A stretch of 34,954 nucleotides of DNA from a virus. Its lineage: Duplodnaviria; Caudoviricetes. Every line of letters starts with the position of its first letter. Positions within the stretch are counted from its first letter, which is position 1. The notes below the pieces were generated by a model, which worked only from the letters and a program-made list of their open reading frames with translations, made no database searches and was not told where the DNA came from. The stretch covers positions 1-34,954 of the IMG/VR virus record IMGVR_UViG_3300028585_000512. One strand, given 5' to 3'. A program made the translations under genes and the position numbers. Below are positions 20,109-34,954 of this stretch, one piece after another.

Positions 20109-20737
20109 TGGAAAGACAATCCACGTTCTTCTCGCTCATTGGTTACTGCAACCCCAAAGACCTGCTGCTGACGGTTTTTGGCAAGTCTATAATCGTCAAT
20201 CTCCTAGCCACTGTTCAGGTAGTCGCCGTGGCGGTAGCAGGCTTCATTTACAACGAGCCCGCCGCCATCGTGCTACTGCTGGCTTTCGCTACCGTTGACT
20301 TGGTGACTGGCACCATCAAGGCGGCCAAGCTCAAGACGCTCAGCAGCAACAAATGGCAGCGCACATTTTGGAAGGTGCTGGTGCAGTTGCTAGTGATTTG
20401 CGGCACCTACCAGTTGGGCAAGCTTGGTGGCGTACTGGGGTTTGCCTTTCAGTACATCCCCAACATTGCACTACTTTCCTTCATCTCGCGGGAGTTTCTC
20501 TCGATTATCGAAAACGTGAACATCATCGATTCGAGCATTATTCCGGACAAGTTCACGCAATACATACAGGGAATGTCGGACATCGACAAAACGCTGGCGG
20601 CCTACGCGAAGAAGCTCACCGGCTCCGGCACTGAGGGCACCCCCGTGCTCGAGATACCTACCGCTGTGACGGCGGAGGCTAAACCAATCGACCAACCTAC
20701 CTGTGCAGATGAAGAAGCTTGCGGACCTACTGTTTAA
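20108..20737 (+). CDS. Holin (phage holin 4 / TcdE-like)
   Basis: Several TM segments, DLVTG..KA.....SS, and E.LSIIEN motif. Confidence 0.85.
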   Translation: MERQSTFFSLIGYCNPKDLLLTVFGKSIIVNLLATVQVVAVAVAGFIYNEPAAIVLLLAFATVDLVTGTIKAAKLKTLSSNKWQRTFWKVLVQLLVICGTYQLGKLGGVLGFAFQYIPNIALLSFISREFLSIIENVNIIDSSIIPDKFTQYIQGMSDIDKTLAAYAKKLTGSGTEGTPVLEIPTAVTAEAKPIDQPTCADEEACGPTV

Positions 20738-22788: not shown

Positions 22789-22842
22789 TTTAAAAGAAAA
22801 TGCCCCATACTTCTTAAGAAGTATGGGGCATTTTCTTTTAAA
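22789..22842. repeat. Perfect 54-bp palindrome (probable strong terminator or cruciform)
   Basis: TTTAAAAGAAAATGCCCCATACTTCTT|AAGAAGTATGGGGCATTTTCTTTTAAA. Confidence 0.9.
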
Positions 22843-23246
22843 TCTTTTTGGAATTTCAAAAATAATATGCCATCTTTACATCATGAAAGCACAACTTTAA
22901 GGCTTTCTAGATCATCTGAGAGTTTAGGGTTTCATGGTAAACGCCTCCAACGGGGAGGTGCGGCACCCTATTGCCTTCACTTTACATCAATCGCAACCGT
23001 CGTTTTGGGGCTGACACCCCCAGTTTACACAATCCTCAATCGGAGGGCTGGCTGACTTTGACATCGTGGGTAATGGTTGACAATCTTGGTAATAGAGTTT
23101 ACCAAGACCGAGTCCATAAAGAATACTTGATAAGTGTGGGCGCCCAATGCTCGAACATAAAACACCCACACCATCAAGCACTTAAGCATCTAGCATACGC
23201 CAGATGCCATCAACTTAATAGCTCCGTGAAAGGAGTGCATAAAGTT

Positions 23247-23609
23247 ATGAACAACCTTGGAAAAGGAAGTAGCAATGCTACTAAAACGTCGGATACGATT
23301 CCGACAAACGTTCTCGCTACGCTGTCTGAGCCTGGAGGCTTCCAGTATGACGCTCGTGAGAAAGTCAGTTTGCCGTTGATGAAAAAGGGCCTTATTGTAG
23401 GTTCCTTGCTCGTCAACAATTCCGACTTTGTCAGCGAGGTTGGCGACAATGATGTGAGCCTAGTACTAAAGCAGCCAGGCTGGGCGAAGCCTCGTTTGGC
23501 TTGCTTCAGCTATGAGGGTTTTATCCAATGGATGGCTATCCATAAACTGGAATCAGTGCATGATGAGGGCTTTCTGGCAGCAGCCACAAAGCTGGTCTCT
23601 CCGGACTAG
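23247..23609 (+). CDS. Hypothetical protein (start uncertain; ORF open from 22971)
   Basis: Open frame in a lower-GC segment; no recognisable motif. Confidence 0.45.
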   Translation: MNNLGKGSSNATKTSDTIPTNVLATLSEPGGFQYDAREKVSLPLMKKGLIVGSLLVNNSDFVSEVGDNDVSLVLKQPGWAKPRLACFSYEGFIQWMAIHKLESVHDEGFLAAATKLVSPD

Positions 23610-23685
23610 TCAAGCGCGCTACCCCGCAACAATGCGGGGCAGCGCCAAAGGCTGGCCTCAAAATCATGTAACCTCAATCCTGTTT

Positions 23686-24693
23686 ATGACTAACCTATCT
23701 AAGGAACAGCCGCAATCAATACTAGATGTATTAATTGCGAAACCCCAGCAAGTCCTGACTCTTGCTGCCGTATACGTCGAGTATCTGAAACCCCAGACGG
23801 AGCCGGAAAAGCCCAGCCTAGATGGTGAGGCGGAAGATTACGACGACTACGAAGATTACGACGAACCCAGCTCAGGTTTGGCTAACTGGGTTGAGCCGGT
23901 AAAACCGTCTGCCTACGTGCCGGGTACCAACCCGAACCAGTTGCGGGAGCCTTTGGCTGACATGTTGCGGCTCACCGAGCGTGAAGCGGCCAACCTAGCG
24001 CTGAAGCTCTTCAAGGGCGTGCGGCCAGCTGACGAGCAGCATAACGAGCAGACGGAGCGCAAGCATATTTTCCGCACGCAAACCGCGAATGGCCTGCGCG
24101 AAAGCTTCGTTAACGGCATGAGCTTTTACTCGCGTGCCGACTTGATAAGCTATGCCAAGCGCATCTGCGCAACCTACGAGCCTTACGAGGTGCTGGGCGG
24201 GGTCAATGCCGCTTTTTTCCGCGAGGCGATGCACCAAGCCGGCTACGTTGACCGCAATACCGACGGGGTAGTGTTTTTTGCTCCATTCAAGACCAAATTC
24301 ACTGAAAGTGTGCTGTGCTTTATGGGTATCGATAAGCAGCCCACCGCTGAGTTCCTGGACGTAGTGATGCGGCGCGTACCGGCTGCATCGGTCGACCCTG
24401 CTAAGGTGCCGCAAGCTTTTTACTACGGCAAGCGGCGTACCTCTTCAAAGGAGGAGCGCAATCAAGCGAAGCAGTCGAAGCAGGAGGAGTACAAGGAACA
24501 TCTGGCGTGGCGTGCGGCCAATGCGGCGAAGGTTAAGTCCTATCGCCTGCTGCTCGACATGGGATTTGACCCGCTGGAGAAGGTAAACGGGCCACAAGTC
24601 GGGGCTCATCCGGTCTCCACGGATAATTCGCTTAGGGCCAGCGAAACGTTTGACGAGAACTTCTTTGATGACATAGAAGACGACATCGCCTAG
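23686..24693 (+). CDS. Hypothetical early protein, possibly DNA-binding or replication related
   Basis: 335-aa ORF with strong coding bias, acidic DYDDYEDYDE tract and acidic C-terminus. Confidence 0.7.
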   Translation: MTNLSKEQPQSILDVLIAKPQQVLTLAAVYVEYLKPQTEPEKPSLDGEAEDYDDYEDYDEPSSGLANWVEPVKPSAYVPGTNPNQLREPLADMLRLTEREAANLALKLFKGVRPADEQHNEQTERKHIFRTQTANGLRESFVNGMSFYSRADLISYAKRICATYEPYEVLGGVNAAFFREAMHQAGYVDRNTDGVVFFAPFKTKFTESVLCFMGIDKQPTAEFLDVVMRRVPAASVDPAKVPQAFYYGKRRTSSKEERNQAKQSKQEEYKEHLAWRAANAAKVKSYRLLLDMGFDPLEKVNGPQVGAHPVSTDNSLRASETFDENFFDDIEDDIA

Positions 24694-25449: not shown

Positions 25450-25684
25450 GCTTTAAGTGGAGGCTGGTCGAAGTGGCTCAGGTTCCTGGCTGCTCCGCGC
25501 CGGAGCCACCCCTCGAAATGTCTTCGCCGACAGCGTAAGGCGCAAGCTAACCTAGGCTGACAAAGCCCGTGGCAGCCAAGGTTGTCGCCCGCTAAGCGGG
25601 TGGCCGATGTGTCGACCGAAAGGTTCGTGGTCAAAAGCGGGGCTGAGTTGCCGGTAAGGCCAGCCAAGGTGAGCAAAAGCCCTT

Positions 25685-25716
25685 ATTACACTAATGTTAT
25701 GTATTATACAATTAGC
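25685..25716 (+). repeat. 32-bp direct repeat, copy 1
   Basis: ATTACACTAATGTTATGTATTATACAATTAGC; 31/32 identical to 27544-27575. Confidence 0.9.
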
Positions 25717-25802: not shown

Positions 25803-25988
25803 ATGGACAAGGTCAAAGGCCCAGGCCGCCCCAAGCAGTACGATACGAAGACGCTGATTCTCTCGATAACCATCCCGGCAAGCCTGCTCGAAGCCATCGA
25901 TGCCACGCTACCCGAAGGCAAGAAACGCAGCCCGGCTATCGTAGCGTTGCTAGCACAGGCTCTGAACCACGACGTATCGGCTAAGTAA
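25803..25988 (+). CDS. CopG/RHH-like regulator with N-terminal GRPK motif
   Basis: GPGRPKQY then SITIPASLLEAID...RSPAIVALLAQAL; coupled to the next gene by TAATG. Confidence 0.75.
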   Translation: MDKVKGPGRPKQYDTKTLILSITIPASLLEAIDATLPEGKKRSPAIVALLAQALNHDVSAK

Positions 25989-27544
25989 TGACGACGGCCT
26001 ACTTCACCCTCAAGCAGGAGCTACTGCGGCCCAAACTTGAAGAGTTGCTGCCTAACCCCGACCACGTCAGCAAGGCCATGCTTTTTGCCCAGTGGTTGCG
26101 GCCAGTGTATGGGATGCGAAAGGATTTCTTGCCCGATGGCTACTACAACGTGGAAGCCAAGCGGCTGGAAAAGCTATTCGGCCGCGATTACGCCGACCTG
26201 CGTAACGCCCTACTCGGCTCAAATGGCATAGCCGATGTGTACAACAACGGCATGTATTTCAGTGCGAAGACTAAGAACAGCAGCAATCAACTGATAAAAT
26301 CGAAGGATAATTACGCGATGGCTTACAAGCTTAAAGAAGAATACCTGACGCAGTGTGATACGCTGCTGGCCGAGGTCAAAGTACCCCACGCCGACAAGGT
26401 AGCTAAGTACATAAAAAAAGACCTCGACAAGCGGACTCAGGAATTCGATGCTCGGTGTAAGCGTCTGGCCCTAACCCAGATGACGCGGCGCATCTGCCGC
26501 AACCTCGACAACGAGCGGGCATGGCAGGACGCCAGCGTACTTGAGCAGCGAGGCCAGGTATTCATAAACCGCGGTAAGCAAGTGCAATTGGCCACGCTCG
26601 TCAATCGGCTCGACTGGCTGGTAGAGGGGAACTTCTACGGCAATAGCCAAGATGATAACGGCCGCAAGCACGACCCACTTACCAATTCGTGGGAGCTTAT
26701 CAAACGCTACATGCGCATTGATGGCAAGCCAGTGGTAGAGATGGACTTCTCGAACAGCCAGTACTATTTTCTAGCCTTGCTTATCAAGTACCCTACCGAG
26801 TGCTACGCCGTCCTTACCGAGCAAGCCAAAGACGATAAGGACGCCGTGCGCGAGGTACTGATGACCATGCGCGAGCTGCACGACGCCGAGCCGGTCGTGC
26901 AGGAGTTCTGCCGTCAGGCCTTAGCCGGTACCCTCTACGAATGGGCCGCAGCCCAGAGCAATTCCACCCGCGACAGCATCAAGCGGCATTTCCAAGCTGC
27001 TTTCATGTCAGAAACCAGCGAATGCTTAGTGGCTAAGCGGAAGCTGAAATTCATCAAGCCTCTGCTCGACGTGCTAGGCAAGCTGAACGGCCCCAGCGAA
27101 GAGGATAACGCCTACTGGTATAAAGTGGCCGAGGCCAACGAGGACTTGTCGTACAAGCTGCGCAAGAAAATGCGCGAGTCAGTCTATAAGCCCATGAAAC
27201 GCAACTATGTAAGTCAATTGCTACAGCGATTCGAGAGCCGCATGATAGTCGATAGAATCTCGATGGCTGCGGTGGACTACTGTGCCGACCCCTTCCAGTC
27301 GGTGCACGATTCCTTCCTGTCCAGCGCGGCCGACCAGGCTACGCTCAAGGAATTGACGGAACTGAAGTTTGACGAGTTGGGCATCTTGGCCGAAGACCAG
27401 CCCAAAATTAAGACCAAGCAGTTCGAGCCCGGCTACGTGTTCGACGCCACGACAGAGGAGCTGGCCAACGTGCCCAAACACTACGTGACCCAAGAAGAGG
27501 CTCGGGTGCTTATAAAGGACCTTCAGCACAAGGTGCAGGCTTAA
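25988..27544 (+). CDS. Compact PolA/T7-RNA-polymerase superfamily nucleic acid polymerase
   Basis: Ordered motifs DDNGRKH (~26651), VEMDFSNSQ (motif A, ~26744), RDSIKRHF (motif B, ~26969), LLQRFES and SVHDSF (motif C, ~27305). Confidence 0.72.
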   Translation: MTTAYFTLKQELLRPKLEELLPNPDHVSKAMLFAQWLRPVYGMRKDFLPDGYYNVEAKRLEKLFGRDYADLRNALLGSNGIADVYNNGMYFSAKTKNSSNQLIKSKDNYAMAYKLKEEYLTQCDTLLAEVKVPHADKVAKYIKKDLDKRTQEFDARCKRLALTQMTRRICRNLDNERAWQDASVLEQRGQVFINRGKQVQLATLVNRLDWLVEGNFYGNSQDDNGRKHDPLTNSWELIKRYMRIDGKPVVEMDFSNSQYYFLALLIKYPTECYAVLTEQAKDDKDAVREVLMTMRELHDAEPVVQEFCRQALAGTLYEWAAAQSNSTRDSIKRHFQAAFMSETSECLVAKRKLKFIKPLLDVLGKLNGPSEEDNAYWYKVAEANEDLSYKLRKKMRESVYKPMKRNYVSQLLQRFESRMIVDRISMAAVDYCADPFQSVHDSFLSSAADQATLKELTELKFDELGILAEDQPKIKTKQFEPGYVFDATTEELANVPKHYVTQEEARVLIKDLQHKVQA

Positions 27545-27575
27545 TTACACTAATGTTCTGTATTATACAATTAGC
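27544..27575 (+). repeat. 32-bp direct repeat, copy 2
   Basis: ATTACACTAATGTTCTGTATTATACAATTAGC, starting at the last base of the polymerase stop codon. Confidence 0.9.
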
Positions 27576-28402: not shown

Positions 28403-29515
28403 ATGTCAAGTTCAAACTACGGCCACAATCATTATTTCTTCAAAGGCAAACAAATGACCTTAAGAAAAATAGTTGGCTTAATTCACCCTAACGCCACTGA
28501 AACGGATGCGGGTAAATATTATACCCGGTATTTCCAGCGTATGGCCCGCGGCCTTTCATTAGATGAGGCGTTTGCCTTAGGCACTGGGCCGCTTCAGTCG
28601 CGCCCGCGGCTTGCTAAAAAAGAGGCAACGCCTCCCACCCAGCCATTAGTACCTACCTTACCCGTGGCACCAGAACCAGTTGAGGAAATTGAAATCCCAG
28701 AGGTAGAAGAAGTGCTTGAAGCAGAGCAGGAGCAATCCGAATACGAGCGAGCCCTGGCCTACGCTAGCACCGTGCAAGTTTGCTTCCGTAAGTACCAAGG
28801 CGCGTCGTTGGCGGGTGTGCTAGAAACGGAGCCGTCTTACATCGAATGGATGCGCCGTAAGCTCATTGACAATGCAGACGAGAAGGGTCTGAAAACGCTA
28901 TACGGCATCAATAAGCTGTACAACGATTACCCCACCGTGCAGGCCTACATTGAGCGGGCTACGGAAGAGTATTTAACCAAACTAAACGCTAGCTGTACGG
29001 TACCAGCATCCACCACCTTAGGAGACAATAAAAAGCTGCAAGGCTTATTAATAATTGACAACTCGCAATTGTCGGCAACCACTGTCAAAGAGGCAACTGA
29101 GCTTGAATCGCCTACCCTAAATTTGGACGGTTACTCATTCCAGGAGTTGGAAGAAATGCAGGCTTTGCTAGCTGAGGAAAAGGAAGCACTGCGGGAAGAG
29201 CAGTCGGCGCTAGACAAGCGCCGGCCAGTCATCACCAAACGGCTGTTATCGGTGCACCAAGAAGCACAGCAAATAGAGGAAAAGTTGGCGGCGCTACGCC
29301 CTAAAGCTCCTGCCGTATCCGACCACGCTCTTGTTCGGTATCTCGAACGCGTTATGGGCATGGACGTGGACAAACTACGCGATGCCGTTGTGGGTGGCGA
29401 AAACTGCAAATGGTTGTTCGACTACCAGACCCATGGTGCTGGTCGGTACGTGGTCGGCGATACGCACCGGGTTTGCATTCAGAATAACACGGTTGTTACG
29501 GTGATACCTCGCTAA
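28403..29515 (+). CDS. Multidomain protein: HTH-like + F(R/G)KYxG domain + coiled coil + SDHAxxRYxER C-terminal domain
   Basis: YFFKGKQMTL...RGLSLDEA; FRKYQG.SL..V....PSYIEW; heptad coiled coil; VSDHALVRYLERV...VVTVI. Confidence 0.65.
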   Translation: MSSSNYGHNHYFFKGKQMTLRKIVGLIHPNATETDAGKYYTRYFQRMARGLSLDEAFALGTGPLQSRPRLAKKEATPPTQPLVPTLPVAPEPVEEIEIPEVEEVLEAEQEQSEYERALAYASTVQVCFRKYQGASLAGVLETEPSYIEWMRRKLIDNADEKGLKTLYGINKLYNDYPTVQAYIERATEEYLTKLNASCTVPASTTLGDNKKLQGLLIIDNSQLSATTVKEATELESPTLNLDGYSFQELEEMQALLAEEKEALREEQSALDKRRPVITKRLLSVHQEAQQIEEKLAALRPKAPAVSDHALVRYLERVMGMDVDKLRDAVVGGENCKWLFDYQTHGAGRYVVGDTHRVCIQNNTVVTVIPR

Positions 29516-30701: not shown

Positions 30702-31283
30702 CTAGCTTCGGAACACGAAGCCGTCGTCGCACCACACGTCACCTGAGAGCATGATGTCGCGGCCCATCGACTTGAAATCTATGTAATTGACAACGCTCTT
30801 GGGTATCTCGTCCTTGCTGTGGCATTCCCAGAAAGTGGTTTCAGCGTAGTCTTCCATCACCTTTTCGTCGTCATGGTGGTAGCCCTCGCCATAGCGGCCC
30901 AAGTATCGGCCTTCGAATTGGTTAGCGTCGTCGCCATTGTTAATGAACAACTCGTAGGCTTCACGCCGCTCATCATCCATCTCAGCCACGGCTTCAATCC
31001 AAGCATAAACGACGTTGAAATCCATCGACTCGGAGTAGAGGCGTTCGGGGAAGTTCTCGTAATCATGCGCCGCCCATTCCTCGCGCTGTTGGCCGAAGGG
31101 CAACGGGTAAAGCTTATCGTAAGTCTTGAGCATGGCCTGCACATCGGCCAGTAGCTCAGCGGCATCATCGTAGTCGCAAAACGCAAACCAACGGCCCAGC
31201 AAGTCGCCGTTATTGTAGTCACTCAGCGAGGCCACGTACACGCGCGGGGTCGTATCTTCGGGTAATTCTTCTTGGCTTTTCAC
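30702..31283 (-). CDS. ardA: Antirestriction protein ArdA
   Basis: RVYVASLSDYNNG.L.GRW, EEWAAHDYE, YIDFKSMGRD; highly acidic DNA mimic. Confidence 0.92.
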   Translation of the reverse strand: MKSQEELPEDTTPRVYVASLSDYNNGDLLGRWFAFCDYDDAAELLADVQAMLKTYDKLYPLPFGQQREEWAAHDYENFPERLYSESMDFNVVYAWIEAVAEMDDERREAYELFINNGDDANQFEGRYLGRYGEGYHHDDEKVMEDYAETTFWECHSKDEIPKSVVNYIDFKSMGRDIMLSGDVWCDDGFVFRS

Positions 31284-32130: not shown

Positions 32131-32453
32131 ATTAGTTGGTGTCAGCAGGGATGATTTTGCTTGCTTGACGATGTAAAGGTGCGCGGCATTCGCGGCACCA
32201 CTACTATTATTGATGGTATTTTACTAAAAATTTTAGCGTAAGATTGCGACCTTTTTTGCGGCCTCATTAAGACTCAAATAAGAAGACCGGACTGCTGAGC
32301 AAGCGTACTAGCTTAACCGCCTAGCTGGCCTCGATACGAGTCAGTTATAGCGTGCCGGTGGGCCTGCGCCGCCATGGTGGCAGCGGCCCTTGCCTAGGGT
32401 ATCAAATTATTCCTTGCTTTGCACCTTACTTTCGTCTCATCAATAGTGGCAGT

Positions 32454-33461
32454 ATGACTAGACACCTTAAACTAAAGACTATAACACGTCTCATAGCAAC
32501 AGCCAAAGGATTAGCTGACCGCACGGCAGGCGATGCTGATTTTATTGCTTGGCGAGAAGCCACTAGGTTAGCCTTATCTAAAATTTATGGCACCGACTCT
32601 TTACAGTATGATGCCTTTGCCAAAAAAGCATTTACCGTTACTGGGTTAATGCGCAACGCACACGAGGCTGATAAAGCACGCCGACGCCTTGCCGTATACA
32701 ACCGCGACTTAGAAGTTTCTATAAAGGCGCTAGAAGAGTATTTGGAAGAAGTCAAAGAAGAAGACCCATTCGAATCCATGGGTATGACACTTGTTGAAGA
32801 AAGCCCCGAAGCAGTCCCTATGCCCCAAACATTTAAAAAAGTATTTATCAGCCACGCCAGTGCTAATAAAAACATTGTAGGCGAGTTGATTGAAATACTG
32901 AAGCAGGTCGGCCTGCGGCACGGGCAGATATTCTGCACGTCGTTCCCGGAGTACAGCATACCGCTTGGAGTGAATTACCTCGACTGGTTGAAGAAAGAAC
33001 TCACCGAGAACTCGCTGGTGATTTTCGTGCTCAGCCACGAGTTTTACACAAGCCCGGTCTGTTTATCCGAGATGGGTGCCACCTGGGCGCTATCGAAGGA
33101 GCACGTACCCATCTTCGTGCCGCCGTTCACTTACGATGAGAGCAAAGGCCCCTTCCCGCTATCGCAGGGTATGATTGTGACTGAGAAGTTTAAATACAAC
33201 GAACTGGCCAACATGGTCGAGCGGCTGTTTGAGCTGCCGGCCCGTGGGGGTGATTGGGAGCGTAGCCGTGATACTATCATCACTCGCATTGAGGGCTGTG
33301 TTCACACTGGAATCGAAGCTAAAAGGGCAAAAGAACAAGCTGATGCAGAAGAGCGAGCTAGACCTTTTAAGGAGTTAAGCGAGATGATGCGAAAAAATGA
33401 AGCAAAACTGGCTTCGCAGGGTAGAACTCAGCAGCCAGGCATTCAACCATCGCGCCATTAA
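32454..33461 (+). CDS. TIR-domain protein (putative anti-phage cargo)
   Basis: KKVFISHAS, IFCTS, VIFVLS..FY.SPVCLSEMGA (catalytic-type Glu); helical N-terminal domain. Likely start 32454, after a TACTTTCG -7-like element. Confidence 0.85.
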   Translation: MTRHLKLKTITRLIATAKGLADRTAGDADFIAWREATRLALSKIYGTDSLQYDAFAKKAFTVTGLMRNAHEADKARRRLAVYNRDLEVSIKALEEYLEEVKEEDPFESMGMTLVEESPEAVPMPQTFKKVFISHASANKNIVGELIEILKQVGLRHGQIFCTSFPEYSIPLGVNYLDWLKKELTENSLVIFVLSHEFYTSPVCLSEMGATWALSKEHVPIFVPPFTYDESKGPFPLSQGMIVTEKFKYNELANMVERLFELPARGGDWERSRDTIITRIEGCVHTGIEAKRAKEQADAEERARPFKELSEMMRKNEAKLASQGRTQQPGIQPSRH

Positions 33462-33604: not shown

Positions 33605-34954
33605 TCAGCTACCGAATGCTTTGCCCATCTCCCCTGCTGCATTGCGGTTCACATCCGCGTACTGTAGCAGTTGCTCTAAGTTAGCGTGGCCTACCCAGCC
33701 CCTAAGCACCGCTACTGACACTCCTGATTCCAACGCGATATTGATGAAAGTCCGCCGGGCCGTGTGGGTAGTGACCAACTGCCACTTCTGCACCACCTCG
33801 GCCCGGCGCTCGGCACCCGACCACCGCACCCGTTCAACTACCTCGCGCATCGACGGCAACAGCTGTAGTAAAGTCTTAAGGTGCTCGTTGTACTTCTGAA
33901 TGGACACCTTCTTGATGCGCCGCTGGTACTTCTCCAGAATCGCCGCCGATAGTGGGTTAAGCGGAATCGTTACCCCCTCCCCTGTCTTCTGCGTCTCGAT
34001 GTGCACATGGTTATTGCGCACATGCGACGGGCCAAGGCGAACCAGGTCAGAGTAGCGCAGGCCGGTTGAGCAACCCAGCACGAATAAGTCGCGCACGTAT
34101 CCCACGCCAGGCATCCCTTCTATCTCCATTGACCATAGCGTATGCAGTTCCTCCTTTGATAAGGCTATCACGGTACGGGCGGTCACTTTCTTCTTATCGG
34201 AGAGGATGAATTTCTTGTACTTAATGTGCGGCATCAGGCCGTCATCGTCAAGTTGATTCAGCACTCGTTTCAGACTTTTGACTGCCTTACCGACCGAAGC
34301 ATTGAGGTAGTTCTTCTGCCCTATCAGGTAGGCCTGGAATCGCGTGAGGAGTGCCTTGTCAAAGTCCACTAGCAGTAGCACCCGCTTTTCGTGAGCCTGA
34401 AAAGCTTCGACATTAGCGTACAGCCCGTAAAAGGTCTTCATCGTGTTGTAAGCAAACACACCTCCGGTGGGAGGAATAGTAGCTGTGCGGTCTTCTCTTC
34501 GCAGTTTCTTATTCCGCGCCCTGATTTGCGCGTAGCTATACCCGCCGTTCTTACTCTGAATGAATTGGTCAAGGTAGTATAGGAAAGAGCACTCAATAGT
34601 AGCAGGCATTGCCGTAGGTGGCGTCACTGGTTCTGCCACTAAATCAATCGCTTGTTGCTTACGCACCTTATAGGCTTCCCGTACCAACGATACGGTTGGG
34701 TCAGTACCCTGTTTGCTGAGGCCCTCAGCAATGGCTTGCAACTCGGACGAGATGCGAGCAATAGCCGCATTAATCGTGGCTGCGTCGGGACAAGCTGCTT
34801 TGGCTTGGCCTGTACCTTCATTCCAGAGGTTCGGTTCTAGAAAGCACCCCGTGGTTACCCCAAACCACTCCCGACGATGGCTGTATTTTACCCCCACAGG
34901 CTGCGAGGTTTTCTTCACGTTGGCGATGCGTAAATACGCACTAGTCGTTGCCAT
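33605..34954 (-). CDS. int: Tyrosine recombinase / phage integrase (Bacteroidota type)
   Basis: Arm-binding N-terminus (TG......W), SAM-like core and catalytic residues TGLRYSD, QKTG, HTARRT, GH and Y. Confidence 0.95.
   Translation of the reverse strand: MATTSAYLRIANVKKTSQPVGVKYSHRREWFGVTTGCFLEPNLWNEGTGQAKAACPDAATINAAIARISSELQAIAEGLSKQGTDPTVSLVREAYKVRKQQAIDLVAEPVTPPTAMPATIECSFLYYLDQFIQSKNGGYSYAQIRARNKKLRREDRTATIPPTGGVFAYNTMKTFYGLYANVEAFQAHEKRVLLLVDFDKALLTRFQAYLIGQKNYLNASVGKAVKSLKRVLNQLDDDGLMPHIKYKKFILSDKKKVTARTVIALSKEELHTLWSMEIEGMPGVGYVRDLFVLGCSTGLRYSDLVRLGPSHVRNNHVHIETQKTGEGVTIPLNPLSAAILEKYQRRIKKVSIQKYNEHLKTLLQLLPSMREVVERVRWSGAERRAEVVQKWQLVTTHTARRTFINIALESGVSVAVLRGWVGHANLEQLLQYADVNRNAAGEMGKAFGS

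Follow-up and report, generated by a model that had tools for sequence, protein, structure and literature searches.

The 518-residue product of an open reading frame in the DNA analyzed here (IMG/VR record IMGVR_UViG_3300028585_000512, all 34,954 nucleotides; hereafter the window) belongs to an unnamed family of polymerases that is real, widespread and probably active. The protein is predicted to consist of a family-A palm and fingers core behind a winged-helix-like N-terminal domain. We tentatively suggest that it is a TV-Pol-like enzyme that binds DNA and makes the primers, probably of RNA, with which replication of its own element would start.

The reading frame is intact and contains, in the order given by the original prediction, the motifs DDNGRKH, EMDFSNSQ, RDSIKRHF, LLQRFES and SVHDSF (Table 1). 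A search of 1.84 billion proteins with the 518-residue query returned 127 relatives at E ≤ 0.001. The alignment comprised 113 sequences: the query, P0002 and 111 of the 127 hits, 16 hits, mostly short fragments, having been dropped. R226, D253, Y317, K332, E416, H440 and D441 were invariant in all 113, and this conservation, together with the number of relatives, argues that the five motifs did not arise by chance. The RNA polymerase (RNAP)-type DxxGR and HDS and the Gln at the steric gate, on which the prediction had relied, were borne out by the alignment. The lack of a YG pair in motif B is true of the query, which has MS in those columns, but not of the family, in which the first column is Phe in 80 and Tyr in 26 sequences and the second Ser in 59 and Gly in 25 (consensus RxxxKxxxFxxx[FY][SG]). 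LLQRFES probably corresponds to H784-S-Q-D787 of T7 RNAP, since the spacing to motif C is 28 residues in both proteins.

Table 1. Positions in the window of the polymerase gene, its parts and associated features.
Feature	Position	Strand	Remarks
39-nt direct repeat, upstream copy	25678..25716	+	TGTAT-T-ATACA palindrome at its center; probably an operator or binding site (predicted)
61-aa repressor-like protein	25803..25988	+	ribbon-helix-helix-like by eye; PHROG 4738 transcriptional repressor, E 3e-4
Polymerase gene, winged-helix + minimal family-A	25988..27544	+	518 aa, ATG start
N-terminal winged-helix-like domain, residues ≈9–126	26012..26365	+	predicted DNA binding; whole model matches winged-helix proteins at Z 5–6
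DDNGR motif, residues 222–226	26651..26665	+	invariant R226 (alignment)
Motif A, catalytic D253	26744..26761	+	D 113/113; Q258 at steric-gate position (D+5), Q 110/113
Motif B helix, RxxxK332xxxFxxxFMS (R328xxxK332)	26969..27010	+	K 113/113, R 87/113
LLQRFES, residues 411–417	27218..27238	+	Q413, invariant E416; probably where T7 RNAP has H784-S-Q-D787
Motif C His-Asp-Ser, residues 440–442	27305..27313	+	catalytic D441; H, D 113/113; S 100/113
39-nt direct repeat, downstream copy	27537..27575	+	90% identical; overlaps polymerase stop codon (repeat search)
Tyrosine integrase	33605..34954	-	Pfam; commonest neighbor of the family, 26/50 distinct loci

Family members are single chains of 390–520 residues, with megaphage members down to 387. 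No longer fused forms turned up in word-based protein searches, a weak kind of search that retrieved only three proteins. The query matched no named family in Pfam, PHROGs, NCBIfam or PADLOC, and tblastn with it against phages and plasmids gave no match. Pfam and NCBIfam hold no model for the family, members are annotated as hypothetical, and phrog_4756, of unknown function, matched 27 of the 98 members scanned.

An AlphaFold2 model of the protein (pLDDT 88.9, pTM 0.85) matched family-A polymerases over residues ≈150–481. The right-hand palm and fingers of superfamily A (the PolA/T7 RNAP fold), for which the original prediction had proposed a structural check, are present in the model, with the invariant motif A and motif C aspartates D253 and D441. 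As the prediction had also stated, there was no recognizable exonuclease domain, either in the model or among the structure matches. Of the structures picked with Foldseek, T7 DNA polymerase (DNAP) gave Z = 13.8 (rmsd 3.8, 262 residues aligned). In a wide structure search, the Z scores were 12.8 for Klenow, 12.6 for Pol theta, 12.0 for T7 DNAP, 10.9 for yeast mitochondrial RNAP, 8.7 for T7 RNAP and 7.5 for N4 RNAPII gp16, so that the modeled structure appears at least as near to DNA polymerases as to RNAPs.

The earlier description had missed the winged-helix-like domain formed by the N-terminal ≈120 residues. Folded alone, it reached a pLDDT of 83 and a best Z of 5.7, with many winged helices tied, including ORC2 and CodY, while Foldseek with the domain alone returned nothing significant. 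A Z of 5–6 for this predicted domain indicates a common fold, not a function. A specifically Rep-like domain was rejected on the same results.

The window, an HK97-type prophage, has gene ends as its limits: on one side a 179-aa ORF before the large terminase, on the other the start of the integrase. Pfam and PHROG identified terminase, HK97-type portal, protease and capsid, tail tube, tape measure, holin and tyrosine integrase genes, in agreement with the integrase-bearing siphophage originally described. The nearest named relatives of the 518-aa protein come from Rufibacter, Hymenobacter and Pontibacter, where they are annotated as hypothetical; a member of the Hymenobacteraceae is therefore the likely host. 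Pfam and PHROG found no initiator, primase, helicase or other polymerase in the window; given these limits, a replication gene could sit beyond the window. Upstream of the polymerase lie two overlapping orphan ORFs, 22971–23609 (212 aa) and 23512–24693 (393 aa), both on the plus strand and without a match in Pfam, PHROG or Atlas; the 393-aa ORF was considered as a hidden initiator and dropped, since profile searches gave no match. Between two early genes, at 22789–22842, the sequence forms a perfect palindrome of 54 nt, with two arms of 27 nt and without a loop, and locus L001 has a perfect 70-nt palindrome containing similar TTTAAAAGAA arms at 20696; a bidirectional terminator, a cruciform and a telomere-like site are candidate readings. 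Downstream of the polymerase, a 370-aa protein (28403–29515) carries an ExoX-like C-terminal motif, and at locus L003 an ExoX-like_C protein lies directly 3′ of the polymerase homologue. An ArdA anti-restriction gene (30702–31283, minus strand, E 8.5e-29) and a TIR_2-domain gene adjoining the integrase (32352–33461, plus strand) are likely a defense moron.

The stop codon of the repressor-like gene overlaps the start codon of the polymerase (TAATG). By eye, similar genes encoding 54–77 residues directly precede the polymerase in the window and at eight other loci (L001, L002, L003, L010, L062, L073, L088 and L090); only the window's copy had a profile match, while seven others were scanned without one, as was L003. 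The repressor–polymerase cassette is flanked by the two copies of a 39-nt repeat, the only long repeat in the window (three matches at up to three mismatches, 0.04 expected). The prophage in genome G147 has a perfect 22-nt repeat of different sequence, confined within that genome to the two equivalent places. Flanking repeats scoring at least 20 were found at 2 of 52 loci and in none of 600 cross-locus controls, and those scoring at least 16 at 5 of 52 and in 1 of 600; they are real but not family-wide. With each copy 65–90 nt upstream of a gene, the repeats are most simply read as operators; alternatively, they could be bound by the winged helix or be left over from cassette exchange. A phage-wide promoter was rejected because there are only two copies, in the window as in the G147 prophage. 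No long repeat was found ahead of the structural operons of either, although short or hairpin promoters would escape such a search. A Bacteroidetes SOS box (CTAA-N5-TTAG, as given in the available text of PMC8565304) was also rejected, the exact box occurring in the window only at 32224 and in none of 52 upstream flanks. The flanks of the family loci contained no conserved origin motif, and long palindromes were rejected as a family origin because they occur at scattered loci without a fixed position. A near-palindromic TTAAATAATTTAA motif is repeated around the plasmid copy described below (L049:18934, 21348, 21619 and 21684) and also occurs near L061 and L072.

The original prediction held that a single-subunit polymerase would be unusual in a temperate siphophage, and this has to be given up. 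The family had matches in 104 of 251 genomes of the Hymenobacteraceae, to which the relative G002 belongs, and in 21 of 301 genomes sampled across the Bacteroidota, with up to seven matches in some genomes; further members reside on a Hymenobacter plasmid of 35 kb (NZ_CP060788) and in six uncultured megaphage records. The settings are prophages, small integrase or resolvase islands, one plasmid and megaphages.

We examined 54 loci of about ±9 kb each (the window itself, 13 found by pattern searches and the best 40 of ≈200 genome matches), 50 of them distinct. A tyrosine integrase was present within ≈9 kb at 26 of the 50, a resolvase at 14 and either at 31. At L058, L059, L060 and L077, the genes run integrase–excisionase–polymerase; in small integrative elements, the slot after integrase and excisionase is the site of a primase or initiator. 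Restriction-modification, UmuC/UmuD/SRAP, HNH and defense genes were other recurrent neighbors. No D5 or DnaB helicase, DnaG or AEP primase or SSB was found among 175 scanned neighbors (85 cluster representatives and 90 more). Phage structural genes made up few of the neighbor clusters, and many carrier loci lacked phage late genes.

The head–tail module of the window is common to prophages in G002, G147 and G177. At a BLASTP cutoff of 1e-4, the polymerase copies of G147 and G177 did not match the query, whereas the head–tail genes of both prophages did match those of the window, a pattern that resembles a swapped replication module. The scanned non-structural ORFs of the G002 and G177 prophages included no replication gene. 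Three replicons carry an initiator besides the family member: the G147 prophage a Rep3-type gene (Rep3_N, E 2.5e-10), plasmid NZ_CP060788 its own annotated Rep, and contig G001:C15 a separate initiator and ParA. A primase working beside a separate initiator would still fit; a role as the sole plasmid Rep was rejected for NZ_CP060788, which carries its own. Contig G001:C15 (43 kb; L109/L110) combines phage genes with Rep, ParA, a resolvase and the family member and looks like a phage-plasmid. In the 595-kb megaphage LR756511 (L114:7992-10438), a 387-aa family member overlaps (ATGA) a gene for a 428-aa, Glu-gated PolA, a candidate pair of primase and DNA polymerase. A conserved PolA partner in megaphages was rejected, as it was present at only one of five megaphage loci.

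In motifs and profiles, the family leans towards the T7 and N4 RNAPs. The best PDB sequence matches of the family profile were mitochondrial RNAP and N4 RNAP2 (E ≈ 0.03). Among 98 members scanned, Pfam RNA_pol matched four and DNA_pol_A none, two PHROG RNA polymerase families matched five and four, and the sole DNA polymerase match in NCBIfam was marginal (one member, E 0.0099). When the profile was scored against seven references, N4 gp16 came first (16.6 bits), followed by MAP_030 of Ma-LMM01 (14.6), T7 DNAP (9.9) and T7 RNAP (7.6), each exceeding all 200 shuffles; divPolA2, N4 gp15 and the LR756511 PolA scored only at shuffle level. HHalign comparisons of the profile with the single T7 RNAP, T7 DNAP and N4 gp16 sequences were uninformative (probability 7–18). 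The steric-gate Glu, HDE and 3′-5′ exonuclease domain of PolA DNA polymerases are absent.

These results, together with the DxxGR and HDS motifs and a spacing from the Q motif to motif C identical to that of T7 RNAP, speak for a minimal, single-chain RNAP of the T7/N4 RNAPII lineage that would transcribe the genes of the element, with the N-terminal domain replacing the specificity loop in promoter recognition. This domain aligned with residues 25–123 of N4 RNAPII gp15 (Z = 5.0, rmsd 3.8, 88 aligned) as well as with any winged helix, which favors such an enzyme, although the score is tied with those of generic winged helices; the N4 mini-vRNAP aligned over residues 22–476 of the model (Z = 6.9, rmsd 8.0). 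Even so, we regard this explanation as doubtful. Between the Lys of motif B and the Q/H motif, the query has 81 residues, modeled as helical, and the family a median of 50 (range 44–86), compared to 153 in T7 RNAP, where the stretch holds the specificity loop; there is no room for such a loop in the family. The spacing from the Arg to motif A is 27 residues compared to 112, and both differences argue against a T7-type transcriptase. The structural resemblance to DNA polymerases, the restriction of the repeats to the cassette and the scarcity of structural genes among the neighbors weigh in the same direction, as does a sigma factor gene (E 5e-17) 2.6 kb downstream of the polymerase in the G003 prophage, which points to transcription by the host RNAP. 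The original prediction had offered either a minimal late-gene RNAP or a TV-Pol-like primase, and only the second survives as the best reading: a late-gene RNAP is very unlikely, given the missing specificity-loop insertion, the failure to find a repeated phage promoter and the many loci without late genes. It is similarly doubtful that the family represents the smallest single-chain RNAPs of the T7/N4 lineage (≈390 aa), with an N-terminal counterpart of N4 RNAPII in place of the specificity loop, both priming replication and transcribing on Bacteroidota prophages, islands and megaphages as a surviving link from Pol I to T7 RNAP. By combining features of Pol I with features of the T7/N4 RNAPs, the family does bear on the origin of single-subunit RNAPs.

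The residue at D+5 is Gln in 110 of 113 family members, compared to Gly in T7 RNAP (DGSCSG) and N4 gp16 (DATSSG). In the available part of a study of Klenow, fingers closing favored dTTP over rUTP by factors of ≈73 in the wildtype, ≈9 in E710Q and 1.6 in E710A, as calculated here from the K2 values of PMC3715850, Table 1 (for E710Q, 0.52 and 0.056), and E710Q was a slow mutator. Since E710Q still favors dTTP ≈9-fold, the Gln gate is weak and ambiguous evidence for RNA use. A dNTP-using primase-polymerase, or a gap-filling DNA polymerase, serving replication, recombination or repair of the element would agree with the T7 DNAP and Klenow structure matches, with a motif B that is Pol-I-like family-wide (Phe at the F762 column in 58/113), with the similar size of Gln and Glu and the discrimination retained by E710Q, and with CcPol-MP, which primes with dNTPs according to the accessible text of PMC7581432 and 10.1101/2022.12.02.518924. 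We nevertheless consider it unlikely: the Glu gate that CcPol keeps, in the same sources, is Gln in nearly all members, the corresponding Klenow mutant is a slow mutator, and the Pfam and NCBIfam scans gave DNA polymerase models almost nothing. A conflict or defense enzyme that makes a nucleic-acid product upon sensing DNA is improbable, for although genes of restriction-modification, SIR2, CBASS-type E1/E2/JAB and TIR systems often lie nearby and some genomes hold several family matches, the PADLOC matches do not extend across the family (three hits among 98 members, each to a single member), a fixed effector partner is absent, and defense cargo is normal in integrative elements.

Priming of element replication therefore remains our preferred, if tentative, reading. 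The winged-helix domain would bind a site in the DNA of its own prophage, and the minimal family-A core would start a short primer de novo, probably of RNA, which host replication proteins would extend. The small upstream repressor may regulate its own cassette at the flanking repeat, by analogy with copG-repB and ColE2 Rep. The intact frame, the conserved catalytic residues, the missing room for a specificity loop and the prophage and integrase–resolvase-island setting are directly supported, and the fold, the two-domain layout and the lack of an exonuclease domain are features of the model. A primer-making enzyme is favored by the invariant catalytic set with no exonuclease, by the lack of another Pfam- or PHROG-recognized replication gene in the window or the scanned G002 and G177 ORFs, by the nearby integrases and resolvases and the integrase–excisionase–polymerase order, and by the distant copies in G147 and G177 and the PolA overlap in LR756511. 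It is further favored by the TV-Pol primase prediction of Iyer, Abhiman and Aravind (PMC2579912) and by CcPol-MP, a proven primase in the available text on that enzyme. De novo initiation fits the RNAP-leaning motifs. The reading is weakened by the separate initiators in NZ_CP060788, G147 and G001:C15, by the lack of a helicase or SSB among the 175 neighbors, unlike D5-linked TV-Pols and CcPol-MP, and by the single PolA neighbor in megaphages, the missing origin motif and the rarity of long flanking repeats. If the protein is an origin-binding RNA primase, it would explain how many Bacteroidota prophages and islands without a recognizable replication gene replicate.

We found no study of this family, biochemical or otherwise, in the literature searched, which was that outside subscription journals, and the accessible text of a preprint on plasmid Rep proteins (10.1101/2024.09.03.610885) lists no PolA-type initiator. 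With the single-subunit RNAPs (N4 RNAPII, T7 and mitochondrial), the family shares DxxGR, RxxxK, HD[SC] and a Q/H-x-x-acidic motif. It differs in size, being one chain of 390–520 residues compared to 673 for N4 (two chains) and 883 for T7, and lacks two inserts, one separating the Arg from motif A and the other, the specificity loop, lying between motif B and the Q motif. The divPolA2 proteins of barbaviruses, as described in the available part of PMC11348598, resemble it in length (≈430 aa), in the lack of an exonuclease, in an uncharacterized N-terminal domain and in a suggested RNAP role, and they have the same 27-residue Arg-to-motif-A spacing; matches in BFVD included a barbavirus protein (E 1.7e-5, TM 0.22). 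However, the representative AUR84708 has Glu at D+5 and FDE, its profile score was reached by 127 of 200 shuffles, and its HHalign probability was 11.8. On these sequence comparisons with one representative, an identity with divPolA2 was rejected and the two are taken as separate families.

CcPol-MP of SCCmec is likewise a family-A domain that primes on an integrative element, but in the accessible portions of PMC7581432 and 10.1101/2022.12.02.518924 it has a Glu gate, uses dNTPs, requires an OB-fold partner and has an adjoining helicase, none of which was seen for the present family. As of 2020, CcPol was the only TV-Pol characterized, according to the available text of PMC7581432. The TV-Pols, predicted in 2008 to be primases as well as polymerases in an integrase or resolvase context (PMC2579912), come closest: they have 400–600 residues, a minimal family-A core without a nuclease domain and an extra N-terminal domain, they occur in integrase or resolvase islands, and Bacteroidetes are among their hosts. 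The present family has the hairpin Arg, the two Asp, RxxxK and the helical thumb, no nuclease fusion and a length in line with that of TV-Pols, and the neighborhood expected of a TV-Pol (lambda integrase, resolvase or transposase) was found at 31 of the 50 distinct loci. In Ma-LMM01, the family profile picked a single ORF, MAP_030, which lies beside transposases (E 4.7e-4, 0/200 shuffles), shares LLQRIE and a similar Arg-to-motif-A spacing, and which we infer to be the TV-Pol of the 2008 paper. Its match rests on the N-terminal domain and is weak (HHalign probability 4.9), and it differs in having His at the gate and HDG where the family has Gln and HDS. The N-terminal domain of TV-Pols was predicted to be all-helical (PMC2579912), whereas that of the present family is a predicted winged helix, with no D5 helicase. 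Membership among the TV-Pols is thus probable, though unproven, the one direct link being the weak N-terminal match to MAP_030. Since this kind of enzyme was already proposed in 2008, the value of the family lies in a tractable test case rather than a new class: an origin-binding RNA primase would put the TV-Pol primase prediction to the test on a Gln-gated, partner-free enzyme.
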